Shown piece by piece: positions 1 to 64,000 of a DNA stretch of 64,000 nucleotides. The notes under the pieces were generated by a model. The model had not been told where the DNA came from. It made no database searches and saw only the letters and a program-made list of their open reading frames with translations. Positions within the stretch are counted from its first letter, which is position 1. Each line of letters starts with the position of its first letter. This stretch comes from a virus (Duplodnaviria > Caudoviricetes), in IMG/VR virus record IMGVR_UViG_2595698293_000001, positions 128,001 to 192,000 of that record, one strand, 5' to 3'. The position numbers and the translations under genes were made by a program.

Positions 1-2
1 AA

Positions 3-2189
3 TTGCAATTTCATGAAGGAATTAAAACTTCTGTAATTCATGATATCCTAATTAAAAGTTCATCAGAGCTTATTTCTGAAGATACTCCAAATTATCAATA
101 CGTAGCGGGTCGTCTTTTGAATTATAGTATTCGTAAAGAAGTTTATGGTCAGTATGAACCAATTCCTTACGGAGAATATGTAAATAACATGGTTCAAAAA
201 GGTATATACGATCCTATCATTCTGGAAAAATATAATTCAGCAGAAATCGAAGAACTCGGGAAATGCATTAAACACAAACGTGATGATAAATTTACTTTTG
301 TTGCAATGAGTCAATGGCAAGGTAAGTATCTGTGTAAAAACCGTGTAACTAAAGAAATTTATGAAACACCACAAATGGCTTATATGACTATCGCTGCTAC
401 GATTTTCTCTGAATACAGTACTGAAATTCGTTTGTCATATGTTAAGAAGTTCTATGATGCTATTAGTACTTTTGATATTAGTTTACCAACTCCGATTATG
501 TCCGGTCTTCGCACTAATACACGTCAGTTCTCAAGTTGTGTAGTACTGAATGTTGGCGATAGTCTTGATAGTATTGGTTCCAGTAATCATGCAATCCTGC
601 GTTATATTTCACGTAAAGCAGGGCTTGGTGTTAATATGGGACGTATTCGTGCAATTGATTCTGCAATTCGTGATGGCGATGCAGTACATACTGGTGTAGT
701 ACCATTCTTATCTGCATTAGCAAAAACTGTCAAAAGCTGTTCCCAGGGAGGTGTAAGAGGCGGGGCAGCAACCGTACATTTTCCAATGTGGCATTTGGAA
801 TTTGAAAATATTGTAGTACTGAAAAATAATAAAGGAACTGAATTTAACCGAGTAAGACAACTGGACTATTGCTTCCAAATCAATAAGACATTATATCAAC
901 GATTGATTGATGGAAAAGACATTACATTCTTTAGCCCACATGATGTTCCTGATCTATATGATGCATTTTGTGCTGATCAAGAAGAATTTGAACGTCTGTA
1001 TATTAAGTATGAACTCGATGAAACTATTCGTAGGAAAACTATGCCAGCGATTGAAGCATTTAGTCATCTAATACAAGAGCGTGCAGAAACTGGCCGCATT
1101 TATATTCAGAATATTGATAATGCCAATGAGCATGGTTCATTTATTCCAGAAATTGCACCAATTGAGCAAAGTAATTTGTGTCAGGAAATTGATTTACCAT
1201 CTGTTCCATTTGAAGATATTAATAATGGTGAAGGTCTTATTAGCCTATGTACTTTGAGTGCTATTAACTGGGGTAATTTTGACAAACCCGAAGATATGGA
1301 AGAAGCGTGTGATTTGGCTGTCCGTGCCCTGGATGCTATTCTTGATTATCAGGATTATCCAGTACTACATGCTGAACGAGCTACAAAGCTCTACAGACCA
1401 CTTGGTGTTGGTATTATGAGCCTAGCCTATTTCCTGGCTAAACGTGGCTTAAAATACGATACAAACGCATTGAACACTATTAACGAATGGTCAGAAGCGT
1501 GGTCTTATTATTTGATTAAAGCATCCGTAAACCTTGCAAAAGAAAAAGGGCATTGTGATGGATTTAAGAATACTAAGTACTCACTGGGTTTATTCCCACA
1601 TGACACTTATAAATCAGATTCATATATCAATGAAATTGCACCATATGAATTAAAACAAGATTGGGATTCCCTACGTGAAGAAATGATGGTGTATGGTATT
1701 CGTAATGCTACATTACATGCAAATATGCCAGGAGAAACATCATCACAAATCAGTAATAGTACTGCTGGTATTGAAAAGATTCGTTCTCTTGTAACAGTAA
1801 AAACTTCTAAAGATGGTGTTCTTAAACAAGTTGTACCTGAAATTTCAAAATTAAAGAACAAATATGACCTACTATGGGAACAATCTGATAATATTGGTTA
1901 TCTTCAGGTGTGCGGCGTTATGCAGAAATATATGGATCAAGGTATAAGTACTAATACGAGTTATAATCCTGAAAAGTTCCAAGATGGAAAAGTGCCAATG
2001 TCAGTACTGTTAACAGAACTTCTAATGGCTTATAAACTTAACACAAAACAACTATACTATCATAACGTGTTGGACAATGCTTCTGAAGTTGATATTGACA
2101 AATATATGGAAGAAAAAAATAAATTAACAAAAAATGATATTGTTTTGCCTGAGCTACCAGAAGATGATTGTGAGAGTTGTAAATTGTAA
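3..2189 (+). CDS. nrdA: Ribonucleotide reductase class Ia alpha subunit (5' end probably truncated by the window edge)
   Basis: PTPIMSGLRT, SSC, CSQGGVRGG, EQSNLCQEI motifs; C-terminal CESCKL cysteine pair. Confidence 0.97.
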   Translation: MQFHEGIKTSVIHDILIKSSSELISEDTPNYQYVAGRLLNYSIRKEVYGQYEPIPYGEYVNNMVQKGIYDPIILEKYNSAEIEELGKCIKHKRDDKFTFVAMSQWQGKYLCKNRVTKEIYETPQMAYMTIAATIFSEYSTEIRLSYVKKFYDAISTFDISLPTPIMSGLRTNTRQFSSCVVLNVGDSLDSIGSSNHAILRYISRKAGLGVNMGRIRAIDSAIRDGDAVHTGVVPFLSALAKTVKSCSQGGVRGGAATVHFPMWHLEFENIVVLKNNKGTEFNRVRQLDYCFQINKTLYQRLIDGKDITFFSPHDVPDLYDAFCADQEEFERLYIKYELDETIRRKTMPAIEAFSHLIQERAETGRIYIQNIDNANEHGSFIPEIAPIEQSNLCQEIDLPSVPFEDINNGEGLISLCTLSAINWGNFDKPEDMEEACDLAVRALDAILDYQDYPVLHAERATKLYRPLGVGIMSLAYFLAKRGLKYDTNALNTINEWSEAWSYYLIKASVNLAKEKGHCDGFKNTKYSLGLFPHDTYKSDSYINEIAPYELKQDWDSLREEMMVYGIRNATLHANMPGETSSQISNSTAGIEKIRSLVTVKTSKDGVLKQVVPEISKLKNKYDLLWEQSDNIGYLQVCGVMQKYMDQGISTNTSYNPEKFQDGKVPMSVLLTELLMAYKLNTKQLYYHNVLDNASEVDIDKYMEEKNKLTKNDIVLPELPEDDCESCKL

Positions 2190-2287
2190 TATATTAATTA
2201 CTAAAAATATCACAAATTAATATCAATAGTAAAAAGCTAAACACCATATAACGGTTTTTACTTTCGAATACAAATAATAATATAATA

Positions 2288-2312
2288 AATCCCACAATTA
2301 AGTGGGATTTTT
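2288..2312 (+). terminator. Rho-independent terminator
   Basis: AATCCCAC-AATTAA-GTGGGATT hairpin followed by T run. Confidence 0.7.
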
Positions 2313-2339
2313 ATTCTATAAAACAAAGGAATGTAACAA

Positions 2340-3464
2340 ATGTCAGTGTTTCAAAAAAATACAAAATCACATTTAGAAAAGAATATGTTTTTTGATGAAG
2401 CGGTAGATATCCAACGCTTTGAAACTAACAAGTATTCTACCATTGAGAAATTAACCGAACAACAAAAAGGATTTTTCTGGAGTCCCGGTGAAGTTGACGT
2501 AAATAAAGACAAAATTGATTTTACTAAATTATCTGAAGCGGAAAAGCATATTTTCACTTCCAACCTCAAACGTCAGATACTACTTGATTCAGTACAGGGC
2601 CGTGGTCCAAACACGGTACTTCTACCACTGGCTTCGTTACCGGAAGTAGAAAATTTTATTGAAACTTGGGCGTTCTTTGAAGGTGCAATTCATAGTAAAT
2701 CATATACTCATATTATTCGTAACATCTACACCAATCCATCTGAAGTATTTGATACTATGCTTGATATTCCTGAAATTCTGGATTGTGCCGTTGACGTATC
2801 TAAGTACTATGATGATTTAGAAGAATACGGTACTTGGTATCGTATGCTTGGTGTTGGCACACATACTATCAATGGTAAAGAACTTGTTATTGACATGTAT
2901 GAACTGAAAAAGAAACTGTGGTTGTGCTTAAATTCCATTAACGTATTGGAGGGTATACGATTTTATGTCTCATTCGCTGCATCCTTTGCATTTGGTGAAA
3001 ATAAAATCATGGAAGGTAATGCCAAGATCATTAGACTAATTGCGAGGGATGAGTCTCTCCATTTAGCAGCAACTCAAATGATGCTTCGTTTGTTGAAAAA
3101 AGAAGATCCAGACTTTGTTAAAATTTCTGAAGAATGCTATGATGAAGTCCAGAGTATGTTCCTGGATGCTATTAAGCAAGAAGAAGACTGGGCTGATTAT
3201 CTATTTAAAGATGGTTCTATTATCGGTCTTAATGCTGAAATACTAAAACAGTATGTTCGCTGGATTGGATCTAAACGTATGGCAGCAGTTGGAATTAAGT
3301 GTCCATATGCTGTAACGAAAAATAGCCCACTCCCATGGATGGAACATTGGATTAGTAGTGCGGGTGTGCAGGTTGCACCACAAGAAACTGAAATTAGTTC
3401 CTATGTAATTGGTGGTATCAAAGCCGATATTACAGAAAACACGTTCAGTACATTTAAACTATAA
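2340..3464 (+). CDS. nrdB: Ribonucleotide reductase class Ia beta subunit
   Basis: LDSVQGRGP, IHSKSY, LEGIRFYVSF, IARDESLH, VAPQETEISSY motifs. Confidence 0.97.
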   Translation: MSVFQKNTKSHLEKNMFFDEAVDIQRFETNKYSTIEKLTEQQKGFFWSPGEVDVNKDKIDFTKLSEAEKHIFTSNLKRQILLDSVQGRGPNTVLLPLASLPEVENFIETWAFFEGAIHSKSYTHIIRNIYTNPSEVFDTMLDIPEILDCAVDVSKYYDDLEEYGTWYRMLGVGTHTINGKELVIDMYELKKKLWLCLNSINVLEGIRFYVSFAASFAFGENKIMEGNAKIIRLIARDESLHLAATQMMLRLLKKEDPDFVKISEECYDEVQSMFLDAIKQEEDWADYLFKDGSIIGLNAEILKQYVRWIGSKRMAAVGIKCPYAVTKNSPLPWMEHWISSAGVQVAPQETEISSYVIGGIKADITENTFSTFKL

Positions 3465-3469: not shown

Positions 3470-3502
3470 AAAATTCAGTACTGATTAAGTACTGAATTTT
3501 TT
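3470..3502 (+). terminator. Rho-independent terminator built from two AGTACT palindromes
   Basis: AAAATTCAGTACT-GATTA-AGTACTGAATTTT followed by T run. Confidence 0.7.
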
Positions 3503-3516
3503 ATAAGGTATAAATT

Positions 3517-6634: not shown

Positions 6635-6991
6635 ATGATAATTTTATACTTTCTATGGATTAATATATTATTAGTACTGATAACTTCAGGATTTAGTACT
6701 ACTGCAATTGTTGTTTATATTTTAAGTTCAGTGTTTATGATTATGAGATCATTATCTATAATTTTCAGTACTGAATTAACAAAAAAGAATAATGATTTTT
6801 ATGTCTTTTTATCAGAACTCAAAGATGATAATCCAAAATTAACTAAAAGTAATATCGTGTGTTCTAATATAATACACTTGGTACTAATATTTGTATTTTT
6901 ACATAGTTATATTGCATTGGGCTTTGTATTATTTAATGTTATTATTAGACTTATCGAATCATATAAAATGGAGAAATTATTTAATGGCTAA
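6635..6991 (+). CDS. Hypothetical membrane protein
   Basis: Several hydrophobic segments. Confidence 0.6.
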   Translation: MIILYFLWINILLVLITSGFSTTAIVVYILSSVFMIMRSLSIIFSTELTKKNNDFYVFLSELKDDNPKLTKSNIVCSNIIHLVLIFVFLHSYIALGFVLFNVIIRLIESYKMEKLFNG

Positions 6992-7508
6992 AATTATTTT
7001 ATGTACAGATAAAAATTACGGTATAGGATATAAAAATACAATTCCGTGGCATAGCAGTGAAGATTTTAAACACTTCAAAGAAGAAACTTTGAATAAAACT
7101 GTTGTGATGGGATATAATACATGGAAATCCCTACCAAATAAACCATTGTCAAAAAGACTTAATATTGTGCTTGTTAATCGTGCATATGAAGATCGTGATA
7201 TGTATGATCAAACCAACGTCTTATTTCTGGATGAAGATAATTTAGAAAGTATTATTCGTAATAACCCTGATTGTGTTATTATTGGCGGTGCATCAATTTA
7301 TAAAATGAGTTTGCCTCATGTAGATGAAATCGTACATAGTATAATTCCCAAAGAATTTGTATGTGATTGCTTTTTTGACTTCACTATTGATAAGCGTGTG
7401 ATTATTGAACGTGAAAGTTGTAAAACACTTGATGATGGTATTATGGTGGATTATTATAAATGCAACCCAAATCCAGATTATGATGATTACGTGGATTCAT
7501 ATCAATGA
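6984..7508 (+). CDS. frd: Dihydrofolate reductase
   Basis: GIGYKNTIPWH, EDFKHFK, VVMGYNTWKSLP, PLSKRLNIV, IIGGASIY; ATG at 6984 after GGAG SD. Confidence 0.95.
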   Translation: MAKIILCTDKNYGIGYKNTIPWHSSEDFKHFKEETLNKTVVMGYNTWKSLPNKPLSKRLNIVLVNRAYEDRDMYDQTNVLFLDEDNLESIIRNNPDCVIIGGASIYKMSLPHVDEIVHSIIPKEFVCDCFFDFTIDKRVIIERESCKTLDDGIMVDYYKCNPNPDYDDYVDSYQ

Positions 7509-8089
7509 AGATAAAGGATATGGAAGTTCGTTTATGTGAGCGTGGTGAAATTTCTTCATTCATTGAAGAACATCATTATTCTAAAAATATTAATGGTTGT
7601 ATAACTGATTATTGTTTCAAATTAACATATAATAATGAAATAATTGGTGCTATGTTTTATGGAAAAATGGCTATGGCTAACCAATACAAAAGATTTGTTG
7701 ATAGAGAAGAAGATTGTATTGAGTTGCGTAGATTATGCTGTATTGATGATACACCAAAAAACACTGAAAGTTTTTTTATTGGTAAAACACTAAAATGGCT
7801 TAAAAAGAACACGCAAATAAAGGTGGTTGTTAGTTATGCAGATCAAGAATATGGTCATAGTGGTATAATTTATAAAGCATCTAATTTTGAATATAATGGA
7901 TTTAAAAAAGGTGCTAAAGTTATAATCCACAATGGCAAACAATATCATGATAAAGCTATTAGAACTAAGTATAAAGGGAAGTTAAAACCATTTGCACAAA
8001 GATTAAAAGATGCATTAGACAGTGGTGATGCTTATTATAAACAAACTGCTGGAAAACATACTTACACTTACAAGTTAAGGAAAACTTAG
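7505..8089 (+). CDS. Mom-like GNAT-fold DNA modification protein
   Basis: HHYS, ELRRLC, PKNTESFFI, VVSYAD...GHSGIIYKASNF motifs typical of the Mom family. Confidence 0.7.
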   Translation: MKIKDMEVRLCERGEISSFIEEHHYSKNINGCITDYCFKLTYNNEIIGAMFYGKMAMANQYKRFVDREEDCIELRRLCCIDDTPKNTESFFIGKTLKWLKKNTQIKVVVSYADQEYGHSGIIYKASNFEYNGFKKGAKVIIHNGKQYHDKAIRTKYKGKLKPFAQRLKDALDSGDAYYKQTAGKHTYTYKLRKT

Positions 8090-12969: not shown

Positions 12970-13066
12970 AAAATGGGAGCTTATGCTCCCATAAATATTT
13001 TTGAACAAAAACATTAAAATCAACTATAATTTATACGTTATAACAAAGATACAAAAGGATTTAATA

Positions 13067-29356: not shown

Positions 29357-30454
29357 ATGTTAAGTTATGTCATTTTGTTACTACCTGCACTTATTGTTAT
29401 GTTTGTGATGAAATACATTTATAACAAAGAAATTAGTACTAAAGAATTTTTGATTCATGGGGCTATTTGTATTATTAGTGCAACTGTTGTATTGGCACTT
29501 TCTTATGCAATAAATTACGCTTCATTGACTGATACCCAGATTTTAAATGGTAAAGTACTAAGTAAGAACAAACACGTTGAGACTTGTACTCAATATAGCT
29601 CGTGTGAGCATTATTATGTAAAAGAAAAATGTCATTATTACACAGATAGTAAAGGAAAACGTCACAAAAGTTGTGAAACATATAAAGTGTTTGATTATCC
29701 GTATGAAGTTGACTGGTATGTCAATACCAGTGTGGGTGACTTCAAAATTAAACGAGTCAACCGACAAGGTACTACAACACCAAATAGATGGTCAGTTGTT
29801 AAAATAAATGATTATGCAAGTAATACTTCATATTATATAAATTATCTTCTTTCTGATAAAAATTCATTATTCAGTACTGAAAATGATATCAAAAATTACA
29901 GCGAAAAATATTTGAATTCTCTACCAGAATATCCTGAAATTTTTGATTATTATCATACTGAACATGTAATCAATACAACAAAAGCAGATGTTTCTGGTTT
30001 TGATGAATACATTAAAGATGAACTGAAAGATTTGGGATCATCTAAACAAGTAAACATTGAAATATTAATTTATGATTACAAAGATGTTGACTTTGTTGAT
30101 GCAGTATTGTTAAAATGGAAGGGTGGTAAGAAAAATGATGTTATCATGTTCTTTGGTATTGATGAAAATTCAATTGTAAAATCTTTCGTAAGTACATCTT
30201 TCGCCAAAGGGGTTGGTAATGAAGAATTACATTCCAAAATGAGAATTGATGCATTACAAGAGAAATTAAATCTTGACTTAATCAAGAAAGAAGTACATAA
30301 TATCAGTACAAAGTTCGTAAGACAACCAAATGAAAACTTTTCTTATCTAGCAACAAAACTGGAACCAAGAAAAGATGTGATGATTTTGGTGTCTATTCTA
30401 CTGTTAATTCTGTCCTATTTCGTTGGACTATATATGAGAGATAATGAAGTATGA
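29357..30454 (+). CDS. Membrane protein with large extracytoplasmic domain
   Basis: Two N-terminal TMs, Cys-rich segment, W.GGKKND motif, C-terminal TM. Confidence 0.7.
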   Translation: MLSYVILLLPALIVMFVMKYIYNKEISTKEFLIHGAICIISATVVLALSYAINYASLTDTQILNGKVLSKNKHVETCTQYSSCEHYYVKEKCHYYTDSKGKRHKSCETYKVFDYPYEVDWYVNTSVGDFKIKRVNRQGTTTPNRWSVVKINDYASNTSYYINYLLSDKNSLFSTENDIKNYSEKYLNSLPEYPEIFDYYHTEHVINTTKADVSGFDEYIKDELKDLGSSKQVNIEILIYDYKDVDFVDAVLLKWKGGKKNDVIMFFGIDENSIVKSFVSTSFAKGVGNEELHSKMRIDALQEKLNLDLIKKEVHNISTKFVRQPNENFSYLATKLEPRKDVMILVSILLLILSYFVGLYMRDNEV

Positions 30455-38707: not shown

Positions 38708-39601
38708 ATGTTTATGAAACCTATTACAGTACTGTCATTATTCAATGGGATGAGTGTTGGGTATATGGCACTAAAGAATGCTGGAATTCCAGTACAGAAA
38801 TATTACTCATCAGAAATTGATAAATTTGCTATTGCTGAATCACAAGCCAACTACCCTGATATTATTCAGTTAGGTGATATAACTAAATGGGAAGATTGGG
38901 ATATCGACTGGGGTAGTATTGACCTACTTATTGGTGGAAGTCCTTGTACTGATGTAAGTTTTGCGGGAAAACAAGAGGGGTTAGTGAAACCAGATGAAAA
39001 CGGTGATGGTGGAACAAGAAGTGGTTTATTTTATATAATGATTGACATATTCAATCATATTAAATCGATAAATCCAGATTTAAATTTTTTATTTGAAAAT
39101 GTCAAGATGAAAAAAGAACATCTTGAAGAATTTAATAATAATATAGGGGTTGATCCTGTTCTAATCAATTCTGAATTATATACTGCTCATTACAGACAGA
39201 GATATTACTGGATTAGCTCAAATAAGCTAATTCTCAATCCCACCTACAAAGCCCCAGTACTTCAAGATATTATTGTTAATGCATATACTGACAGGAATAA
39301 ATCATATTGCATTGATGCCAATTACTGGAAAAAGGGGAATATCACACAGTACTTACGCAAATCAAGAAGACAGATTGTTTATCTAAGAGACGATCATGAT
39401 TTATTCAGTACTGAAGAAAAAATTAACACATTTAAACTCAATGTTGACTATAGACATTTAACAGTAGACGAAGTATGTTTATTACAGGGTGTACCTGTTG
39501 GATTTTTTAAAGTAAGTAGTGCAACACAAGCATACAAAATGCTAGGTAATGGATGGACATGTCCAGTTATTGAACATCTATTAAAGGAAATTTTCTTTTA
39601 A
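38708..39601 (+). CDS. DNA (cytosine-5) methyltransferase
   Basis: LSLFNG, GGSPC, FENV, RQRYYW, LGNGW motifs. Confidence 0.9.
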   Translation: MFMKPITVLSLFNGMSVGYMALKNAGIPVQKYYSSEIDKFAIAESQANYPDIIQLGDITKWEDWDIDWGSIDLLIGGSPCTDVSFAGKQEGLVKPDENGDGGTRSGLFYIMIDIFNHIKSINPDLNFLFENVKMKKEHLEEFNNNIGVDPVLINSELYTAHYRQRYYWISSNKLILNPTYKAPVLQDIIVNAYTDRNKSYCIDANYWKKGNITQYLRKSRRQIVYLRDDHDLFSTEEKINTFKLNVDYRHLTVDEVCLLQGVPVGFFKVSSATQAYKMLGNGWTCPVIEHLLKEIFF

Positions 39602-47700: not shown

Positions 47701-48192
47701 GGAGGCGACTGTATTCAGTACTGAATCAATTGATCGTTGCGTAATCAGATTCAGTTAGCGTAGTATTAGCTGGGACGCGTACTTGTGAGCCGCAACCACA
47801 ACGTACTTAAAATCCAACGCGTGGAGGGTAAGCATTCTGTACTGAATAGCAGAAGGGCTACAAAAACTTATACTTCAAAAAGGTTCGGGAAGTATTCGTA
47901 ATAAACCGTTTAATCGTCTTATCAGTGCTATGAACAACCAATATATTTGTGGTGGATATTATTGGACTCAAGTAGATGATGTTATCTTTGTACGCTTTCT
48001 AACCAAAAGGTCAGATAATAAAAATGTAAGAAAATTTCAGTACTGATAGCTGGAACCTTACTATAGTAAAAAGACCTGATATGACTCGCTTAGGTCTTTA
48101 AATTATATAATGCGAGGGACGCTACGCCTTAGTTTAGGGCTAAATCGTAAGGATTGCGTACTAAACCGCCTTGAGAGTCCCAAGGCAACTTT
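47701..48192 (+). ncRNA. Candidate large structured ncRNA (about 490 nt)
   Basis: ORF-free, raised GC; TATAAATA at 47684; many hairpins; long-range GCGTAGT(47758)/GCTACGC(48121); terminal hairpin plus T run. Confidence 0.6.
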
Positions 48193-49117: not shown

Positions 49118-49127
49118 AAAGTTTTAC

Positions 49128-49177: not shown

Positions 49178-49185
49178 TATTTTAT

Positions 49186-49370: not shown

Positions 49371-49431
49371 TTTTTAATTAAAAAAGTGTTGAACAAAATG
49401 TTCAATAATGATATAATAATTATCAATGTAA

Positions 49432-49500: not shown

Positions 49501-49508
49501 AGTTTAAT

Positions 49509-49558
49509 GGGTGGTTATAAATCTGAATTGACAGAGACTATTAAAACAGTCACCATCC
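49509..49558 (+). repeat. 50-nt tRNA-like structured repeat, copy 2
   Basis: GGGTGGT-TATAAA-TCTG AATTGA CAGA-GACTA TTAAAA CAGTC-ACCATCC(A). Confidence 0.85.
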
Positions 49559-49746
49559 AAATTTTAATTTAATAGTTTAGTATGAATAAAAAACAAATAC
49601 ATAAACATTATGATGAAATTGCAGTGAAGGTTTTTCGTGGTGAATTAGGTTATAAACCATCTGTTAAATCTAAATATTCAAAATCTTCTTCAATAAAGTT
49701 CAATCATAAAATAGAGTTTAAATAATACTGGACAATAATATATAAA

Positions 49747-50196
49747 ATGAATATCACTAATGTAAAAGATTTTTTAGAATATTTTATTAAGAATACTCGT
49801 GCACGTGATGAATTAGAAAAGAATGGATTCATCCAAGGTTACGATTGCACTAATTTCTTTTATACTATTGATAAACATGAATATTATGTCGATGCAATTT
49901 TAATTGATGATGATGGGTATTGCGTTGGATTTTCATTCGAAGATATATCACAAGATGCACCAATAAACTTTTATGCATTATATTATAATAAAAAAGATAA
50001 TATTTTGAAATTAGGATTTACTCGTGAATCAGATGAAGATGTTGTATTCGATTGTAACACATGGTTGGAACATGATTCATTCTTTCAAAGTACATTAATT
50101 CATAACTTTATGACAACAGATTTAGAGTACTGGAAAAATTGCATAGAATTACTTAATGTAATTTATAATGAACAAATCAAACAAAAATGGCAATAA
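49747..50196 (+). CDS. Hypothetical protein, FFQxS-motif family member
   Basis: WLEHDSFFQSTLIHNFMTTDLEYWKNCI. Confidence 0.7.
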   Translation: MNITNVKDFLEYFIKNTRARDELEKNGFIQGYDCTNFFYTIDKHEYYVDAILIDDDGYCVGFSFEDISQDAPINFYALYYNKKDNILKLGFTRESDEDVVFDCNTWLEHDSFFQSTLIHNFMTTDLEYWKNCIELLNVIYNEQIKQKWQ

Positions 50197-50302
50197 TCAC
50201 AGGACGGTTCGGTATTTGGTAGTATGTTTGGCTGAATAAAGTATAAACGTTTAAAAAAAAGTGTTGAACAAAAAGTTCAGTACTATATAATTGACTTACT
50301 AC

Positions 50303-50376
50303 GTCCCCTTAGTTCAGTTGGATAGAACAACTGCCTTCTAAGCAGTAGGTCACTGGTTCGAGTCCAGTAGGGGATA
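50303..50376 (+). tRNA. tRNA-Arg(TCT)
   Basis: GTCCCCT/AGGGGAT; ACTGC-CTTCTAA-GCAGT; followed by TACCA, so CCA is displaced by 2 nt. Confidence 0.92.
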
Positions 50377-50524
50377 TACCATACAATATGGGAATAGTTA
50401 GAAGATATTCCCAATTTTAATTTAAAAAGTGTTGAACAAAAAGTTCAATAATGATATAATGGTATTATAAAAGGTTGTAATACTTAATATTAACTTTTAA
50501 GAAGATAATTAGTTATCATACACA

Positions 50525-50616
<92 letters not shown>

Positions 50617-50633
50617 TAAAATTCAATTAAAAA

Positions 50634-50767
<134 letters not shown>

Positions 50768-50775
50768 GATTTTAT

Positions 50776-50825
50776 GGATAGTTATAAAGTTGAATTAACA
50801 GCGACACTTAAAATTGTCACTATCC
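50776..50825 (+). repeat. 50-nt tRNA-like structured repeat, copy 3
   Basis: GGATAGT-TATAAA-GTTG AATTAA CAGC-GACAC TTAAAA TTGTC-ACTATCC(A). Confidence 0.85.
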
Positions 50826-50884
50826 AAATTTTAATTTAAATAGTACTTGACAAAAATGTTCAGTACTGATACATAAAGAATATT

Positions 50885-50962
50885 GGCCCTTTACTCTCAA
50901 GTGGTTAGAGAATCCGACTCATAATCGGTAGGCTCTGAGTTCGAATCTCAGAAGGGCCACCA
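50885..50962 (+). tRNA. tRNA with CAT anticodon, probably Ile2 (lysidine)
   Basis: GGCCCTT/AAGGGCC-ACCA and CGACTCATAATCG resemble enterobacterial tRNA-Ile2. Confidence 0.85.
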
Positions 50963-50981
50963 AATTTTAAAACATAATCTA

Positions 50982-51689
50982 ATGAAAATACAATTACAAT
51001 ATCCATATAATCAAGATTGGGATACAGGTTCATTAACAATTAATCCCGAAGGTCGAAGAACTGTTATTTTATATAACAAAACTACAAAAATCACAAGTAG
51101 TACTGCTTATGCACGATATTTGTTAGCAGTGCACAATAACAGATATTTAACTGAAAATGAAGAAGCTGACCATATTGATGAAGATTTCACTAATGATGAT
51201 ATATCTAATCTTCAAATTTTGACAATAGAAGAACATAGAGCTAAATCAATTGCGAATGGTATTCAAGCTAAATATGATGAATTTGTGTGTAAAGGTTGTG
51301 GAATAAAATTTTTAAGAAGACATAATCAAGTTAAGTCATATACAAAATATTGTAGTAAAAAATGTTCTTGGAAAAATAATCCTCCACCAACAAAAACAAA
51401 AAATGGTGACACGACAATCGATTATGATAAAGTAAAAGAATATATAAACGATGGATTGTCAGATACTGAAATTGCAAAGAAAATGAATATAAATCGCAAT
51501 TCAGTACTAAATTATAGAACTAAACACAATATACCTTCTAAAAAATTTGCTAATGTTAATATTTTAGAAGATAATATTGATGAAATAAAACAACGTTTGC
51601 TTTCTGGTGAAAAGAAAGTTGATATATACAAAAGCTATGGTTCTTCAAAAAATGTTTTTGCAAGATTTTTAAAGAGACATGGATTATAA
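50982..51689 (+). mobile_element. Free-standing HNH homing endonuclease with zinc finger and HTH tail
   Basis: ADHIDEDFTNDDISNLQIL...EH; CKGC...CSKKC; two HTH-like C-terminal repeats; lies between tRNAs. Confidence 0.8.
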
Positions 51690-51698
51690 TAGAATAAT

Positions 51699-51771
51699 GA
51701 CTCTGTAGCACAATCGGTGGTGCGATTGACTGTTAATCAATTGGTTGGGGATTCGAGTTCCTCCAGAGTCG
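51699..51771 (+). tRNA. tRNA-Asn(GTT)
   Basis: GACTCTG/CAGAGTC-G; ATTGA-CTGTTAA-TCAAT; no encoded CCA. Confidence 0.9.
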
Positions 51772-51789
51772 CTTAACAAACCAAAGAAT

Positions 51790-51937
51790 TGTACCTAAAT
51801 AACGAGTATATGGATTCTCTATGATTGTCCCTGTATGAGTTAGAGAGATTATTCATAAGAAGTCGAGTGTATAGATTCTCAAAGAAATGATTGTTTATAC
51901 ATGAGTTATCTTAAAACGAATATCTCAAGGTACACCA
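51790..51937 (+). ncRNA. tRNA-like ncRNA with 3' CCA (about 148 nt)
   Basis: TGTACCT/AGGTACA-CCA; adjacent TGAG/CTCA stem; internal hairpins. Confidence 0.55.
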
Positions 51938-51944
51938 AACAATT

Positions 51945-51993
51945 GACTCTGTAGTTCAGTTGGTAGATCTTATATAGTTACCAACCAGAGTCG
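51945..51993 (+). ncRNA. Mini tRNA-Asn derivative without anticodon or T arm
   Basis: Same GACTCTG/CAGAGTC-G-CTTA ends as tRNA-Asn; GTTGGTA/TACCAAC stem. Confidence 0.65.
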
Positions 51994-52001
51994 CTTACAA
52001 T

Positions 52002-52066
52002 GGAAGGTGGTAATACGTCAGTATTACCTTTTAAGACCGAAGATATGAGTATCTTCCCTTCCACCA
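52002..52066 (+). ncRNA. tRNA-like 65-nt RNA with ACCA
   Basis: GGAAGG/CCTTCC-ACCA; GGTAATAC/GTATTACC and GAAGATA/TATCTTC hairpins. Confidence 0.7.
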
Positions 52067-52070
52067 CACA

Positions 52071-52144
52071 TTGTACTCTTCTCCCGTAAGGAGAATGACA
52101 AAAAACTATCCGAAAGATAGAAAGCCTGAAATAACAGGGTGCAA
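52071..52144 (+). ncRNA. Candidate multi-branch small RNA
   Basis: TTGTACTC/GGGTGCAA; TCTCC/GGAGA, CTATC/GATAG and CTG/CAG hairpins. Confidence 0.5.
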
Positions 52145-52156
52145 TTAAATTACAAT

Positions 52157-52352
<196 letters not shown>

Positions 52353-52377
52353 ATTAATTTAAATGGAGTACTGAATA

Positions 52378-52578
52378 ATGTCCAAATATGTTAATCGTCA
52401 AAAACGAAAAGCACGTACTAAGGACGAAATTCTACAGTTGATTCAAAAAAATCAAAAAGATGTAGTTATTGAAGAATATATTTTTCAGTACGGTAATCAA
52501 CAATCAATGGTACAAGAAAGTAATGGTAAGTATCATTCTGAACATTACGACCTTATTAAAAGAATTCTTTTGAAATAA
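52378..52578 (+). CDS. Hypothetical protein
   Basis: GGAG SD. Confidence 0.6.
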   Translation: MSKYVNRQKRKARTKDEILQLIQKNQKDVVIEEYIFQYGNQQSMVQESNGKYHSEHYDLIKRILLK

Positions 52579-52584
52579 ACAATA

Positions 52585-52710
52585 ATACTCATCATCTAAT
52601 ATCAGTACTGATGCGTATCAGCAGGTGGCTTGATGGGCAGTACTGACAGGATACATCGTTCTCCGGTGGCGGGTTCGGTGGATATACGTAAAGTCGTATT
52701 GGGTATACCA
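52585..52710 (+). ncRNA. tRNA-like 126-nt RNA with 7+5 bp acceptor/T stack and ACCA
   Basis: ATACTCA/TGGGTAT-ACCA; ATACG-TAAAGT-CGTAT; TCAGTACTG/CAGTACTGA inner stem. Confidence 0.6.
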
Positions 52711-52733
52711 AATATAATAATAAAAATATGTAA

Positions 52734-52809
52734 TAATGTGATAGCTCAAATAGGTAGAGCGGGAGGCCAAAGTGCTGACTGGTTTGTGAGTTCGATTCTC
52801 ACCCATTAT
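52734..52809 (+). pseudogene. Degenerate tRNA, isotype undetermined
   Basis: D arm GCTC-AAATAGGTA-GAGC and T arm GTGAG-TTCGATT-CTCAC intact; acceptor bulged; anticodon arm remodelled. Confidence 0.65.
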
Positions 52810-52874
52810 TAATAAAATTGTAAGCTACCCTGTTATTTGGGTAGCTTTTTCTTTTTATATAACAAGAGATTATT

Positions 52875-53291
52875 ATGAGTAAATTAACTTTACTGAATAT
52901 TTTACAAGAATGCTATGAAAAACTTGAAAATTCCAATCCAAGTGTCATATTCAACTCATCATTTGATAATTATTCTACTTCAAATTATAAAGCAAAAATT
53001 TTAGTATATAATCACTTTGATTTATCATCATTAAGTGATTGTAGTAACATTTACTTACACATTTGTGACTACAATGATGATAGTGGGTATACTATGACGA
53101 TTGATATTTACAAAGGATATTTTTATTATAAAAATAAAAAATTTGACAATTTTGAAAATTTATTCCCATTGACTGAAGATACAATGTTTCAGTACTCAAC
53201 ACTTTATGACACATCCTCCTTGACAATGGATGAGTTAAATTTTATAATGTCTATTAGTTTGGATATTCCAATTTATGAAGCAGCATTATAA
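52875..53291 (+). CDS. Hypothetical protein, FFQxS-motif family member
   Basis: TEDTMFQYSTLYDT. Confidence 0.7.
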   Translation: MSKLTLLNILQECYEKLENSNPSVIFNSSFDNYSTSNYKAKILVYNHFDLSSLSDCSNIYLHICDYNDDSGYTMTIDIYKGYFYYKNKKFDNFENLFPLTEDTMFQYSTLYDTSSLTMDELNFIMSISLDIPIYEAAL

Positions 53292-53308
53292 AATCTAGGA
53301 GCATTTTT

Positions 53309-53461
53309 ATGAAAATTAAGTGTTGTGTATGTGATTGTGAAATTGATGAAAAGCATGTATATGGCGAATGGGATGATTACTGCTCTGATTGCTGGGAATC
53401 TGAAGGACGTGATACAGAACGTTGGGAAGATGAGAGCGAGTGGGATGAGGATGAAGAATGA
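53309..53461 (+). CDS. Small acidic zinc-finger protein (50 aa, not in the ORF track)
   Basis: AGGAG SD; MKIKCCVCDCEIDEKHVYGEWDDYCSDCWESEGRDTERWEDESEWDEDEE. Confidence 0.65.
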   Translation: MKIKCCVCDCEIDEKHVYGEWDDYCSDCWESEGRDTERWEDESEWDEDEE

Positions 53462-53607
53462 AAGACCAAAATTGGTTGGGTTGACCATCAAAAAGTATCA
53501 CTATGTGGTTCAAAGAAAGTCGCAGTAATGATACGGTGGGATATAAGAAGCGTATGTTAGAAGAGTTATCATCAACGTCAAGAAACTAATATTATCACGG
53601 AGAAAGT

Positions 53608-53928
<321 letters not shown>

Positions 53929-53942
53929 TGAATAGATTTATA

Positions 53943-54040
53943 GGACATACTGCGGGATCTGTTTTTAAGGCTTAGGTACTTCAGTACTAAAACAATACCT
54001 TAGAAACGGAGTCCAAGTTGAATTCTTGGAATGTCCACCA
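53943..54040 (+). ncRNA. tRNA-like 98-nt RNA with T arm and ACCA, no D or anticodon arm
   Basis: GGACAT/ATGTCC-ACCA; TCCAAG-TTGAATT-CTTGGA; long TCTGTTTTTAAGG/CCTTAGAAACGGA helix. Confidence 0.7.
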
Positions 54041-54044
54041 AATT

Positions 54045-54118
54045 ACCGCCTTAGAACAATTGGTAGTGTAACTTGATTTGTAATCAGTAGGTTATATGTT
54101 CGAGTCAGATAGGTGGCA
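54045..54118 (+). pseudogene. Degenerate tRNA-Thr(TGT)
   Basis: TGA-TTTGTAA-TCA anticodon arm and TTCGAGT T loop; mismatches in acceptor, D and T stems; no CCA. Confidence 0.7.
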
Positions 54119-54284
54119 CAAATAATAATAGTACTAGTAAGGTTTATTTACAGTTATGGATTCTTCTTTATATTCTAGTACTATTTCGTTTTTTAATAAA
54201 CAATTCAAAACTTTATTTTTTTTAATTTACTTAGGCTGATTCATTGAATCGGCCATTTTCTTTGTTAACAAAAGAGATAAAAAT

Positions 54285-57054: not shown

Positions 57055-57891
57055 ATGAAAAATATTATTTTTAAAAACATTGCGTTTGTAAAAGATCTAT
57101 ACACTGGTGCATATGTATCTGGTAATAAACTAATTATCTCTGCTGGTAATGATTATGAAGTGCAATTTGAGTCCAGTGATAAGGCATTTGAAGGTTTAAC
57201 TGAACTAGATAGTCTGTTGAATGCAGAAGAACATACCAAATCACCAAAAGCAAATACTGTTTCTGATGAAATTACTTCTCTCTTGAACGGTATTAAAAAC
57301 GGTTCAGTACTGAATACTATTAACGGCATTAATGATAAACTTCGTAATAAAGTAAGTTCATTTAAAAACGATGCACAAGAAAAAGCAATGGAAATCGCAT
57401 TTGAAAAACTATTTAAAGAAGGTTCACTTGCTATCGATAAAGCTATTTCTGATCTGGACAACGCTTTCAACGTTCTGTTCCCTGAAGATGAAACAGAAAC
57501 ACCAAAACAACCAAATACAACTAGCACAAAACCCACTGAAACCACTGAAAGCACAGAAAGTATTAAATCCAAAAAATTTAACATTGATGATATTTTTAGT
57601 ACTCTAAATGTTGGTCAGGATCAAAGTGTACTAACTTTTGATAAAATCATGGCTTCTGATAAGATCATTGATGATATGACAAGTACTGAACTTCGTCGTA
57701 TTATTGATATTTTCATTGATGAAATTGTGAATTCCGAAAAAGGTAAAGAGATGATTGATTCAATCAAAACCAATTTTGGTACAGCAGAAGTTGATGCCGC
57801 GATCCAGAAAATCAAAGATACTGCATATCAGGTTTGTATTGAAAATTCAAATCTAACATTTGCTGATGTGATGCAAAAATACTTCTTTTAA
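57055..57891 (+). CDS. Hypothetical protein
   Basis: AAGGA SD; T/E/P-rich linker; terminator at 57912-57938. Confidence 0.75.
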   Translation: MKNIIFKNIAFVKDLYTGAYVSGNKLIISAGNDYEVQFESSDKAFEGLTELDSLLNAEEHTKSPKANTVSDEITSLLNGIKNGSVLNTINGINDKLRNKVSSFKNDAQEKAMEIAFEKLFKEGSLAIDKAISDLDNAFNVLFPEDETETPKQPNTTSTKPTETTESTESIKSKKFNIDDIFSTLNVGQDQSVLTFDKIMASDKIIDDMTSTELRRIIDIFIDEIVNSEKGKEMIDSIKTNFGTAEVDAAIQKIKDTAYQVCIENSNLTFADVMQKYFF

Positions 57892-62367: not shown

Positions 62368-63264
62368 ATGAAAGAAGTTGATCTAAATGAACTAAGTGCT
62401 GAAATCATGGAAACATTATTTGATGAATCTGATATTGAGCAATCAAAAAATATTAAGAGTACAAAAGATAATATCAGTCTCAAACATCCAACTGGTGTTA
62501 CAAATGAAATGCTGTTAAATGAAATACATAATGGTATTAATGTAAAACAAAATCGTGAATTACTTATCCGTTATAATTATCCACTAGCAGTCAGTATTGC
62601 TAAACGTTGTAAATGTTATATTCCAGAAGAAGATAAAATTTCTTATGCAGTAGAGGGTCTTTTGAATTCAATTCATAATTTTGACCTTACAAAAGGTGTA
62701 TTATTCAGTACTTATGCCAGTGCTTCCATTTACATGACAGTGATGAACATGAGTAATGAACATAATAATTTAGTTTATATCCCCCGCCATGTAAGTGTAC
62801 ATAATGTTAATATTCGTAAATTTGCAAATGACTACGAAAAGAAACACGGCAAAAAATGCAAACCTGAACTTATTTCAAAAGAACTCGGAATTAATGTTGA
62901 TACTGTTGAGTTGTGTTTGTCTTTCCAGGAAACCACATCTCTTGATACTCCAACTTCTGACGATAGTACTGCACTAATTGATACCATTGCCAGTGATTGT
63001 AATGTAGAACAAAATGACGTTGATAGTATTGTTCTGGAATTGATGAATGAACTAGAACCAAAAGAAAAGGAAATCCTTTCCAGAATTTATGGTTTGAATG
63101 GATATGCACCAGAAACCTATGATAGCTTGATTAGTACTGGATTTTATGATAAAAAGGGTAAACGTATCACTGTTCGCGGAACTTTACATTACAAATTCAG
63201 TACTGCACTTGAGAAACTAAAGCGTTTGGTTCGTCTAAAAGGATTAACTGCCAAAGATGTTTAA
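62368..63264 (+). CDS. Sigma-70 family RNA polymerase sigma factor
   Basis: LIRYNYPLAVSIAKR, GLL.SI..FDLTKGVLFSTYA, SLDTP, L.PKEKEILSRIYGL. Confidence 0.88.
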   Translation: MKEVDLNELSAEIMETLFDESDIEQSKNIKSTKDNISLKHPTGVTNEMLLNEIHNGINVKQNRELLIRYNYPLAVSIAKRCKCYIPEEDKISYAVEGLLNSIHNFDLTKGVLFSTYASASIYMTVMNMSNEHNNLVYIPRHVSVHNVNIRKFANDYEKKHGKKCKPELISKELGINVDTVELCLSFQETTSLDTPTSDDSTALIDTIASDCNVEQNDVDSIVLELMNELEPKEKEILSRIYGLNGYAPETYDSLISTGFYDKKGKRITVRGTLHYKFSTALEKLKRLVRLKGLTAKDV

Positions 63265-63290
63265 ATTGATATTTTTTCTTTATTAAATAC

Positions 63291-63319
63291 TTGAACAAAA
63301 TTTTTTACAGTGATATAAT
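63291..63319 (+). promoter_or_regulatory. Promoter driving the downstream non-coding region
   Basis: TTGAAC-N17-TATAAT. Confidence 0.65.
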
Positions 63320-63325
63320 GTTTGT

Positions 63326-63935
63326 AATACATGGATGTTGGACATTCTTTTTGAAAAGAACGTATGGATAAAAACCCGATTAGCCGAAAATGTAACGCTA
63401 CGGATGAGTATAACCAACATATACGAGATGCAGAGGATACCCGAAAGGCGAGACGGCATCTAAAAGGATAGGAAATAGCACTGCCTATCCCAAGCTTACA
63501 TTAGGCTTGATAGATCGCAAATCTGGTTGAGTCCAGACAAATAAAGAGTGTAAGGGAGATTATTTTCTTTTAGATATTTTGGAAATAATCACAGTATTGA
63601 ATTGCTTGAATAGTTCGGTACTGAAGTGCAAGTATGTTTAAACTTGTGACCGTTGCATGTGACTGCGATAGGACGAAACAGGGCAACCCGCGTTCGTGTA
63701 CCAAAAGGTATAATTCGCAATTCAAGGAATTTCGACAGCTACGAGCTTCAAGGCTTAGCTTTTTATTTCTCTTCCCCTCCCTGTGGGGGGATGAAAATAT
63801 CTCGTGCAAACGCCTTCAAGTATTGAAATTCACGAAGTGAATTGAAATTACTTGTTCTGTAGTCGAACGACAGTGAGACGTGAGAACAAGTAATTTCTGC
63901 ATGTATCAACGAAGTGACAACGAGTTGATACATAG
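63326..63935 (+). ncRNA. Candidate large structured ncRNA (about 610 nt)
   Basis: GC-richer, no credible ORF; more than 10 hairpins including the 15-bp GAAATTACTTGTTCT/AGAACAAGTAATTTC and G-U-rich stems. Confidence 0.65.
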
Positions 63936-64000
63936 CACTTTAAAACATTATTGAATTCAATAATTAATATTATTATGGTTATTGAAGAAATCAAATCGGA

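Follow-up and report, generated by a model that had tools for sequence, protein, structure and literature searches.

An AGTACT palindrome present in about tenfold excess in RaK2-like jumbo phage genomes: a possible recognition site for a clade-specific phage protein

Introduction

The restriction enzyme ScaI cuts AGTACT and RsaI cuts GTAC, and phages usually purge such sites from their DNA. Why, then, is AGTACT strewn through the genome of a jumbo phage, and does something read it there? The DNA analyzed here ("the window" below) is the 64,000 bp from position 128,001 to 192,000 of the 345,809 bp genome of a phage that is about 99.7% identical to Klebsiella phage K64-1; coordinates are those of the window unless stated to be genomic.

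Results

Abundance of AGTACT

AGTACT occurs 148 times in the window (125 copies in ORFs and 23 intergenic, spread over all of positions 1..64000), where 100 dinucleotide-preserving shuffles gave 13.19 on average (s.d. 3.15, maximum 23); the density is 2.3 per kb against an expected 0.2 per kb. The overabundance claimed in an earlier note on this DNA is thus confirmed, and its particulars are exact: nine copies lie at 417, 465, 542, 815, 1361, 1576, 1758, 1947 and 2003 in the ribonucleotide reductase large-subunit gene (1..2189, + strand, truncated at the window start), and the full 12-bp palindrome TTCAGTACTGAA, with an expectation of 0.01, is present five times, at 6764..6775, 29870..29881, 39404..39415 (within the C5 methyltransferase ORF, below), 47714..47725 (intergenic) and 57303..57314. 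The whole genome has 937 AGTACT copies against 79–118 expected, which ranks it first among the 64 palindromic hexamers; all of the others are at no more than 1.9 times expectation, and 14 hexamer palindromes with an expectation of at least 10 are reduced to 0–1 copies. The sequence is that of the ScaI and RsaI sites, yet it is enriched here while these 14 are purged. Its one-off inner neighbors AGTATT (1.41 times expectation) and AGTAAT (1.28 times) are not depleted, and the strongest 8-mer around it, CAGTACTG, is present 247 times in this 0.346-Mb genome against 3 expected.

Across RaK2-like jumbo phage genomes there is about one AGTACT per 370 bp. Outside one hot region its density in intergenic DNA (1.8–4.7 per kb) matches that in coding DNA (1.6–3.3 per kb) and its spacing is Poisson (index of dispersion 0.92–0.95). 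Early-region intergenic DNA carries 12.8 per kb, and the tail-fibre/depolymerase genes at 322.7–333.6 kb of the genome, which have no homologue in other genera, carry just 0–1.2 per kb. Chi is also in excess in the RaK2-like phages, a signal separate from AGTACT.

Coding sequences

Could codon usage, or the pairing of codons or of amino acids, account for the excess as an artefact? Ser is most often encoded by AGT and Thr by ACT, and the frame AGT|ACT holds 419 of the 762 coding sites in the genome. The earlier note had named its own refutation in advance, namely that the excess should disappear under a codon-preserving null or be confined to one frame; the test was run, and the excess survives with all three frames enriched. 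When each protein and its own codon usage were kept in synonymous-codon shuffles, the 101 ORFs that overlap the window gave 38.0 ± 5.9 copies (maximum 54 in 300 shuffles) against 128 observed, or by frame 22.2/2.3/13.5 against 65/15/48. Genome-wide, the 762 coding copies compare with 238.7 ± 13.5 in 200 such shuffles (maximum 273), with 525.7 ± 12.3 in 200 stricter shuffles that also keep dinucleotides (maximum 565), and with 124 expected from a codon-order shuffle; the enrichment is 2.8- to 4.7-fold in every frame, and three-frame excess is found under both codon-preserving nulls. Non-coding DNA is enriched as well, and AGTACT encodes 419 of the 849 Ser-Thr pairs where codon usage predicts 130; the codon preference more probably follows from the word than gives rise to it. 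We reject the artefact explanation, which is almost certainly wrong. The proteome itself is skewed toward the dipeptides that AGTACT encodes: Ser-Thr pairs number 849 against 483 expected (1.76-fold; Thr-Ser 1.01-fold) and Val-Leu pairs 786 against 512 (1.54-fold; Leu-Val 0.93-fold). The pressure for AGTACT works on DNA rather than on protein.

Gain and loss of sites

Between this genome and that of KP13-7 (2.5% divergence), 63 AGTACT sites differ in one direction and 47 single-step sites in the opposite one. The gain flux per near-match site is 2.25 times the genome-wide expectation (0 to 1.13 for 40 control hexamers of the same base content) and changes from match to other words are at 0.55 times; 8.2% of coding AGTACT sites are changed, against 11.2% for any hexamer. 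Comparisons with three genera found 23%, 27% and 12% of coding AGTACT conserved against 15.5%, 12.4% and 10.9% for any hexamer, so single coding sites are barely better conserved than any other hexamer. AGTACT is under active maintenance while its individual sites turn over, with gains about equal to losses.

Footprint of the word

AGTACT is preferentially preceded by T, T, C and followed by G, A, A, with no preference past ±3, and TTCAGTACTGAA is the best full form of the site. The left and right flanks covary only slightly, and there is no surplus of sites with at least 4 flanking pairs (16, with 13.7 expected), a combination that fits the half-sites of a dimer and not a hairpin. Judged from these preferences, AGTACT is most likely a word read on double-stranded DNA with a symmetric and short footprint. 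Almost every gene is on the same strand (the + strand holds 494 of the 528 called ORFs), so self-complementary AGUACU in the transcripts might instead pair at the RNA level, as a hairpin tip or an RNA-RNA contact. In some 5' leaders and terminators, indeed, AGTACT forms the tip or is part of both arms of a perfect hairpin; by its sequence context a terminator-like hairpin at 3470..3505 (+ strand), placed after the reductase small-subunit gene, has one copy per arm (3477 and 3488) and then a run of T. The majority of sites, on the other hand, lie within ORFs and are stemless, flank complementarity does not extend beyond ±3, and the promoter copies (below) lie upstream of transcription starts. 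With the paired-flank count given above the hairpin reading was rejected, and an RNA-level signal in general is exceedingly improbable.

Promoter placement

In early and tRNA promoters of the sigma-70 type, AGTACT stands at a fixed position relative to the -35 and -10 hexamers. This genome has 19 pairs of AGTACT at exactly 20 bp in the arrangement AGTAC-TTGACA-N10-cAGTACTG-TATAAT. Their sole member in the window, a promoter-like module at 50842..50867 (+ strand), is 18 bp upstream of tRNA-Met (50885-50962); the final T of its first AGTACT is part of TTGACA, and its second AGTACT directly precedes the -10 region. Two sigma-70-like promoters on the + strand have single copies: TTGAAC-N16-TATAAT at 50264..50291, upstream of tRNA-Arg (50303), where AGTACT (50279-50284) precedes TATAAT by one base, and TTGAAC-N17-TATAAT at 50639..50667, upstream of tRNA-Ser (50680), with AGTACT (50654-50659) in the spacer. 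Genome-wide, 23 of 83 intergenic sigma-70-like promoters have AGTACT in the spacer. TATAAT has its peak one base past AGTACT, and TTGACA at -1, -11 or -21 relative to it, in each of the six genomes examined. The two-copy pattern is found 4 times in 121Q, 8 in Hallingskeid, 2 in Kaldavass, 8 in fENko-Kae01 (4 distinct) and 4 in CBB (2 distinct), and its reversed control has no match in these same five relatives. What one would look for in an operator, a dyad-symmetric word at a fixed position that overlaps or abuts the -35 or -10 hexamers, is thus present, although shared ancestry of duplicated promoter cassettes could lie behind part of these copies. As context for a promoter link, the window also encodes a 298-aa sigma-70-like factor (62368..63261, + strand, region 3 match), which belongs to the 106 clade-specific core proteins.

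Distribution among phages

AGTACT is the top palindrome, at 9–12 times expectation, in all seven RaK2-like genomes tested for top rank (the present one, KP13-7, 121Q, CBB, fENko-Kae01, Hallingskeid and Kaldavass; 9.3-, 11.5- and 10.3-fold in the last three, respectively). Phage XbC2, of which the 10-mer alone was counted, has 31 TCAGTACTGA against 0 of the reversed control word. In PA5oct, whose capsid protein makes it the nearest outgroup (65.6% identity), AGTACT numbers 15 against 86.5 expected (0.2-fold); T4 has 27 against 30 (0.9-fold), and Vibrio phage 6E35-1b has 0 against 50. The hosts of the enriched phages are Enterobacterales, except that XbC2 is recorded on Xanthomonas. The excess is about tenfold and confined to one clade of giant phages that infect Klebsiella, E. 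coli and related bacteria.

Methyltransferase and Mom genes

The earlier note had called AGTACT "HIP1-like", after the highly iterated palindrome GCGATCGC of cyanobacteria, and had offered a C5 methyltransferase and a Mom-like gene as possible causes. Both ORFs are present on the + strand, the former at 38708..39601 (297 aa, PF00145) and the latter at 7505..8089 (194 aa, PF25680, E 4e-37), but we judge neither to be the cause: the C5 family is missing from fENko-Kae01, where AGTACT is nonetheless 9.3-fold enriched, and Mom is missing from 121Q, fENko-Kae01 and CBB, all 9- to 11-fold enriched, in a search whose positive control, the present genome, gave its match. The label holds as description (a short, dispersed palindrome in all frames and in non-coding DNA, above every null) and fails for the named genes.

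Might another phage modification enzyme target AGTACT, with methylation-dependent processes keeping the word frequent? A Dam-family methyltransferase (PF05869) is encoded by all four genomes tested and has no tblastn match in the searched stretches of PA5oct, T4 and the Vibrio phage, and RaK2 DNA withstands many restriction enzymes, a result mentioned as data not shown in the part of the RaK2 report available to us (PMC3622015). Against this, the available part of a native-versus-amplified nanopore study of the enriched relatives Hallingskeid and Kaldavass gives GATC, CCWGG and TGCAT as modified, and not AGTACT (PMC11780129); its motifs were chosen by manual inspection and its DNA came from virions only, and the manual choice means that a weak AGTACT signal could have escaped. 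The same part of the RaK2 report describes bisulfite data that indicate CpG, a dinucleotide that AGTACT lacks (PMC3622015). A methylated C would moreover increase losses to AGTATT, yet AGTACT is maintained. We consider this explanation improbable.

Discussion

The genome-wide excess and the fixed promoter positions together point to a putative reader of AGTACT. Our prediction is that a clade-specific protein, in the form of a dimer, binds the word, marking phage DNA and working at early promoters; we hold this reading tentatively and would not yet call it probable. A dimeric protein of the RaK2-like lineage would bind AGTACT, the high density of sites would label phage DNA as "self," and the accumulating reader would, through the promoter copies, modulate early transcription, probably by shutting it off. 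Phage and host counts make a "self" tag feasible: CAGTACTG is present 194 times in the 0.349 Mb of the E. coli phage 121Q and 78 times in the 4.64 Mb of E. coli K-12, the sole host counted, and with the count for the present genome (above) this makes it about 33–42 times denser in RaK2-like phages than in that host. Pfam scans of 527 of the 528 ORFs revealed neither a helix-turn-helix nor any other domain of the classic operator-binding kinds, none of 38 small clade-specific proteins received a DNA-binding annotation in PHROGs scans, and a protein atlas look-up gave no candidate AGTACT reader; the 106 clade-specific core proteins are left as the pool of possible readers. A more far-reaching version, which we think rather unlikely, is that the RaK2-like phages, as T4 relatives that by the RaK2 report lack a hydroxymethylcytosine pathway (PMC3622015), have swapped a chemical "self" mark for a sequence-encoded one read by a protein. 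A clade-specific reader would then distinguish phage from host DNA, turning off host-type early promoters that bear AGTACT and sparing or recruiting phage DNA, whether to replicate it, package it or shield it from a nuclease of the phage itself. The overall interpretation in the earlier note is partly supported, in that a DNA-organizing protein and biased repair, both among its suggestions, are the two leading readings.

Under biased repair, a clade-specific nuclease or repair activity would correct near-match mismatches to AGTACT, as very-short-patch repair in E. coli acts on CCWGG, and the word would be a by-product without function at most sites. Site turnover without individual conservation, Poisson placement, the flux values of 2.25 and 0.55 and the equal coding and non-coding densities are all as this predicts, the low density in the tail-fibre/depolymerase genes would be expected of recently acquired, unconverted DNA, and several nuclease-fold ORFs (TnsA-like, PD-(D/E)XK, and DUF7487 with a restriction-endonuclease-like domain) are present. 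The genome has no Vsr-family gene, however, AGTATT and AGTAAT are not depleted, and neither the fixed -35/-10 offsets in six genomes nor the 12.8 copies per kb of early-region intergenic DNA are explained, so that we judge repair drive unlikely, if a serious contender. AGTACT might also be where a phage enzyme of replication, recombination or topology does its work, for example as a nickase site, a primase start or a preferred cleavage site of the phage type II topoisomerase, and such an enzyme would need frequent sites on both strands. The central GTAC is compatible with a 4-base stagger, a palindrome is usable from both directions, the density is uniform, the pressure is strong enough to change proteins, and topoisomerase II, primase and helicase genes lie within or beside the window. 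We nevertheless regard such an enzyme as distinctly unlikely: T4, in which AGTACT is not in excess, has homologues of both the topoisomerase II and the DnaB-type helicase, promoter placement is left unexplained, and the strand breaks reported in the available part of the nanopore study are solely those of an unrelated Pseudomonas phage (PMC11780129).

Could a host protein be the reader, titrated or exploited by the phage? The nucleoid-occlusion factor SlmA is the obvious example, as its site GTGAGTACTCAC, a 12-bp palindromic footprint bound by a dimer, has the identical AGTACT at its center, and the enriched phages grow on Enterobacterales with the one exception noted. According to the part of the SlmA report at hand, though, SlmA requires G, T and a purine at positions 1, 2 and 3, respectively, on either side of AGTACT (PMC3020112). 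The outer positions that it needs are disfavored in the phages: -1 prefers C, with G there at only 0.06–0.10 in all five genomes examined, and full sites matching GTRAGYRCTYAC number 0–2 per genome, while XbC2, with its 31 TCAGTACTGA, is recorded on Xanthomonas. The SlmA site was rejected on these grounds, and a host reader of any kind seems very improbable.

Our preferred reading, a phage-encoded reader, resembles by its proposed logic the genome-coating proteins p6 of phi29 and TF1 of SPO1, which are also early-promoter repressors; genome-wide binding, preferred sites at early promoters and early shut-off would be common to all three. It differs in that p6 recognizes DNA bendability and TF1 hydroxymethyluracil DNA, neither reads a defined hexamer, and no homologue was found in this phage. 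HIP1 has been linked in the literature to CGATCG methylation. AGTACT is like it in being a short palindrome scattered every few hundred bp or so through coding as well as non-coding DNA, far in excess of what composition predicts; the two differ in sequence, AGTACT belongs to an enterobacterial jumbo phage and not, like GCGATCGC, to a cyanobacterial cell, no matching methyltransferase was found in the phage, and the available part of the methylome study of two relatives includes no AGTACT modification (PMC11780129). The phage word is also found at fixed promoter offsets, a further difference from HIP1. The DNA uptake sequences of Neisseria and Haemophilus and the Chi sites of E. coli are asymmetric "self" words with known readers, whereas AGTACT is palindromic and its reader putative; as with them, the word is far denser in its own than in foreign DNA, which would let a reader discriminate between the two. 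Were AGTACT to prove a sequence-encoded "self" mark that replaced a chemical one, as in the more far-reaching version, the RaK2-like phages would provide the first case of a virus encoding an analogue of HIP1 or uptake sequences that has a defined role.

Size of the AGTACT excess

The window contains 148 copies of the palindrome AGTACT where 13.2 are expected, and five copies of its full 12-bp palindromic form TTCAGTACTGAA where 0.01 is expected; on recounting, every copy of the two words reported in the earlier note lay exactly where that note had placed it. The first 12 kb of the window are 99.7% identical over their full length to Klebsiella phage K64-1, and the 345,809-bp genome from which the window (its bases 128,001–192,000) comes is that of a RaK2-like jumbo myovirus (genus Alcyoneusvirus, according to the K64-1 record), with a GC content in the window of 29–34%. 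This whole genome carries 937 copies of AGTACT, 2520 of GTAC, 247 of the strongest 8-mer CAGTACTG (3 expected) and 34 of TTCAGTACTGAA. Under a dinucleotide model AGTACT stands at 11.9 times its genome-wide expectation, while the runner-up palindromic hexamer reaches 1.9 times, and when AGTAC/GTACT and their flanks are masked the remaining hexamers are all at or below about 3.6 times. AGTACN variants are enriched 2–4-fold, TGTACA is not enriched and CGTACG is absent.

Purging of short palindromes is well known in phages and is extreme in this genome: 14 palindromic hexamers with an expectation of at least 10 have one copy or none (17–20 such hexamers in relatives), CTTAAG is present once against 81 expected, CTGCAG, GCATGC, GAGCTC and others are missing where 17–30 are expected, TCCGGA, like CGTACG, has no copies, and GATC is low (777 versus 1059). 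This avoidance suggests that the DNA is for the most part unprotected and faces strong pressure from type II restriction. Against such a background, one palindrome at twelve-fold excess is a strong sign of an unexplained process.

The E. coli Chi octamer is also over-represented in this genome and unevenly divided between the strands, with 15 copies on the plus strand and 3 on the minus strand (about 0.8 and 0.5 expected); eight of the 15 plus-strand copies lie at 221.8–243.6 kb, and one is at genome position 132830 (window 4830). Other RaK2-like genomes likewise have 7–36 per strand, and outside the clade the octamer is near expectation (0–3 per strand in PA5oct, T4 and CM1, 1–3 in the Vibrio phage). 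The Chi excess may give protection against RecBCD.

Independence from protein coding

Is the excess simply a consequence of the proteins that this genome encodes? Frame-aware counts were made on 528 ORFs (89.6% of the genome coding, 494 ORFs on the plus strand) from our own uncurated calls with a simple codon-usage-scored caller, which match the K64-1 annotation well within the window. Coding DNA holds 762 copies of AGTACT, and within-gene shuffling of synonymous codons over the whole genome gives 238.7 ± 13.5; the three frames have 419, 79 and 264 copies against 147.9, 16.7 and 74.2 expected. When all dinucleotides are preserved as well, the expectation rises to 525.7 ± 12.3, still below the observed number, and shuffling codon order within genes leaves 124. 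The earlier note had put forward a codon-preserving null as a test of its proposal, and the excess persists under it with all three frames enriched; the window alone behaves as the whole genome does. The proteome itself is skewed: Ser-Thr and Val-Leu occur at 1.76 and 1.54 times expectation, the reversed pairs Thr-Ser and Leu-Val at 1.01 and 0.93, and 419 of the 849 Ser-Thr pairs are written AGTACT where codon usage predicts 130. A codon or dipeptide artefact is thus rejected, and the shuffles and skewed dipeptides together show a pressure on the DNA itself, one that suffices to alter protein sequences.

The window also carries eight tRNA genes (Leu-UAA, Gly-UCC, Arg-UCU, Ser-GCU, Ser-UGA, Met, Asn and Thr-UGU) at 48487–54119; tRNA-Ser(GCU) reads AGT, the commonest serine codon (2575 occurrences) and one of the two codons of in-frame AGTACT.

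Distribution among related phages and present-day maintenance

AGTACT was counted against expectation in each genome, some of the comparison genomes in part, and ranked among the 64 hexamer palindromes. It ranks first in all the RaK2-like phages so counted: 937 observed versus 79 expected in the present genome, 954 versus 82 in KP13-7, 903 versus 100 in 121Q, 1235 versus 109 in CBB, 941 versus 102 in fENko-Kae01, and, in the first 200 kb of each, 780 versus 68 in Hallingskeid and 650 versus 63 in Kaldavass. In XbC2 the 10-mer TCAGTACTGA occurs 31 times and a control word not at all. Outside the clade there are 27 copies versus 30 expected in T4 (160 of 166 kb, rank 21), 17 versus 32 in Stenotrophomonas phage CM1 (120 of 320 kb, rank 30), 15 versus 86.5 in Pseudomonas phage PA5oct (first 280 of 287 kb, rank 61) and none versus 50 in Vibrio phage 6E35-1b (first 240 of 253 kb, rank 62). 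By capsid protein (65.6% identity) the closest outgroup is PA5oct, and its depletion and that of the Vibrio phage mean that the clade rich in AGTACT is immediately bordered by phages that avoid it. The 4.64 Mb E. coli K-12 chromosome has 78 copies of CAGTACTG, compared with 194 in phage 121Q and 247 in the present phage, so any protein that reads it would sit almost wholly on phage DNA.

Individual copies turn over between genera. AGTACT sites of the present genome are also AGTACT in 23%, 27% and 12% of cases in 121Q, fENko-Kae01 and CBB (33, 30 and 29 orthologous gene pairs), and the same-hexamer shares for all hexamers in these ortholog sets are 15.5%, 12.4% and 10.9%. Across the 307,502 bases aligned with the closer KP13-7 (2.5% divergence), 70 of 855 sites, or 8.2%, differ, versus 11.2% for all hexamers, and another 67 sites are AGTACT in KP13-7 only. 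Relative to genome-wide substitution rates, losses from AGTACT are 0.55 of expectation (0.80 ± 0.25 for 40 control hexamers) and single-step gains are 2.25 of expectation (controls 0.64 ± 0.27, maximum 1.13). These balanced fluxes and their directional bias, in what is an unpolarised comparison of two genomes, indicate that the excess is being maintained now and is not decaying.

Anatomy and placement of the word

The flanks of AGTACT are symmetric, with T (0.48), T (0.42) and C (0.47) preferred on the left and G (0.51), A (0.44) and A (0.53) on the right; G directly before the word (0.07) and C directly after it (0.05) are disfavoured. The preferred preceding base is C in the present genome and 121Q and shifts towards A in CBB and fENko-Kae01, with G rare throughout. 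No information content was found beyond ±3 bases, covariation between the two flanks is weak, and there is no surplus of longer palindromes. The unit is accordingly a 12-bp dyad of the kind typical of a dimeric DNA-binding protein and not of a hairpin. Selection for hairpins or cruciforms is ruled out by the absence of flank covariation past ±3, and a repeat element bearing the word by the end of conservation at the same point.

Outside the presumed early region (genome 222–245 kb, beyond the window) coding and intergenic densities are comparable, at about 1.6–3.3 and 1.8–4.7 sites per kb, and the scatter is Poisson (index of dispersion 0.92–0.95). Except for the 20-bp promoter pairs described below, no regular or helical-phase spacing was found, nor any enrichment at gene starts or ends by metagene position. 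The longest gaps coincide with five minus-strand tail-fibre/depolymerase-type genes at genome 322,764–333,605 (outside the window), which hold 0–1.2 sites per kb and lack homologues in the other genera, a pattern that fits their recent arrival from phages without the word. Elsewhere, the type II topoisomerase genes at window 13001–18169 are separated by a 569-aa ORF; the K64-1 annotation calls this ORF a hef-like homing endonuclease, Pfam gives no match for it, and its five copies of AGTACT are a normal density.

By our ORF calls, non-coding DNA makes up about one-third of the presumed early region, and the intergenic stretches there have 102 copies of AGTACT in 7985 bp (12.8 per kb). The region consists of repeated modules with a terminator, a 'tctttacaaatctttacaaa' repeat, a promoter, a perfect leader hairpin, a ribosome-binding site and a small ORF without a database match; no tRNA or Rfam family was found in it. 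Nineteen pairs of AGTACT in this genome are exactly 20 bp apart. Seventeen follow the pattern AGTAC-TTG(A/C)..-N-cAGTACTG-TATAAT: the last T of the first copy also belongs to the -35 hexamer, and the second copy stops one base short of the -10. In a simple scan 23 of 83 intergenic sigma-70-like promoters have AGTACT in the spacer and eight have both copies, and such an AGTACT-bearing promoter precedes each of tRNA-Arg, tRNA-Ser and tRNA-Met in the window. In all six genomes examined TATAAT peaks one base after AGTACT, and TTGACA at -1, -11 or -21; the two-copy pattern also occurs in 121Q, fENko-Kae01, CBB, Hallingskeid and Kaldavass, and a reversed control gives no matches. According to the CBB genome paper, promoters of the host's RpoD-like type cluster in the presumed early region.

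Intergenic DNA genome-wide has at least three sigma-70-like promoter classes (examples in the window lie at 50264 and 50639): TTGAAC-N17/18-(TGA)TATAAT, spread across replication genes; GGGTTGACT..GTCAACCC..TATTAT, with a hairpin within the spacer; and the AGTACT-bearing class.

Candidate causes

The earlier note had likened the signal to HIP1 and named a C5 methyltransferase and a Mom-like gene as possible causes. Neither survives comparison: the C5 methyltransferase family is present here and in 121Q and CBB and absent from fENko-Kae01, which is nevertheless enriched, and Mom is found in this genome and in none of the enriched 121Q, fENko-Kae01 and CBB. The Mom-family gene (window 7505–8089) is flanked by the genes for dihydrofolate reductase and Dda helicase, a position occupied in those three phages by an annotated RNase H (or ribonuclease) gene. 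A Dam-family enzyme is present in all four, and no N6/N4 methyltransferase of family PF01555 was found in this genome. The RaK2 paper (PMC3622015) reports two methyltransferases and, as data not shown there, CpG methylation by bisulfite. Nanopore comparison of native and amplified DNA (PMC11780129), with motifs chosen by manual inspection of Tombo statistics, found GATC and CCWGG modified in Hallingskeid and Kaldavass, and TGCAT in Kaldavass. With well over a thousand copies of AGTACT per genome, modification there should have stood out, and these data from relatives are good, though indirect, evidence against it. The host protein SlmA has a binding site with the same core (PMC3020112), but it needs G, T and a purine outside that core; these flanks are disfavoured here, full SlmA sites number 0–2 per phage genome, and SlmA is rejected. 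Methylation, host factors, RNA structure and coding artefacts are all unlikely explanations.

We tentatively favor a putative dimeric, clade-specific DNA-binding protein that would read AGTACT. A Pfam scan of 527 of the 528 ORFs (all but one of 9981 nt) found no classic operator-binding domain. By phylogenetic profiling, 185 of the 528 ORFs are conserved in 121Q, CBB and fENko-Kae01, and 106 of these match nothing in PA5oct, T4 or the Vibrio phage; they include a sigma-like factor, the Dam-family enzyme, endonuclease VII, two zinc-finger/CapR proteins and many small basic proteins. PHROGs searches with 38 of 118 small clade-specific proteins and one protein-atlas look-up gave no lead. Two small basic members of the 106 lie in the presumed early region, outside the window: a 73-aa ORF with a ParE-like toxin domain (genome 240,708–240,929) and an 89-aa ORF of no family (231,945–232,214), both conserved in five of five relatives from other genera in spite of the fast evolution of that region. 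The main rivals seem less probable. Sequence-specific repair or conversion towards AGTACT would run in the direction of the gain bias seen against KP13-7, but we consider it rather unlikely, and no Vsr-type repair gene was found in this genome. That AGTACT is the working site of an enzyme is more doubtful again.

Significance

The AGTACT excess is real, strong and clade-wide. We found no description of it in the literature that could be searched, which included the RaK2 and CBB genome papers; the supplementary promoter tables of those two papers may list the word without remarking on it. The pressure distorts the amino-acid order of about 500 proteins, and the underlying process is common to a clade of jumbo phages of Klebsiella, E. 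coli, Salmonella and Erwinia that is used therapeutically. For the engineering of these phages, ScaI/RsaI site density, primer design and the behavior of word-free foreign inserts may matter. The sharp boundary between depleted PA5oct and the enriched RaK2-like phages, together with the promoter placement, makes the question directly testable, and the outcome would also bear on the iterated palindromes of cyanobacteria: AGTACT is a virus-borne counterpart of such highly iterated palindromes, with the addition of a conserved link to early promoters.
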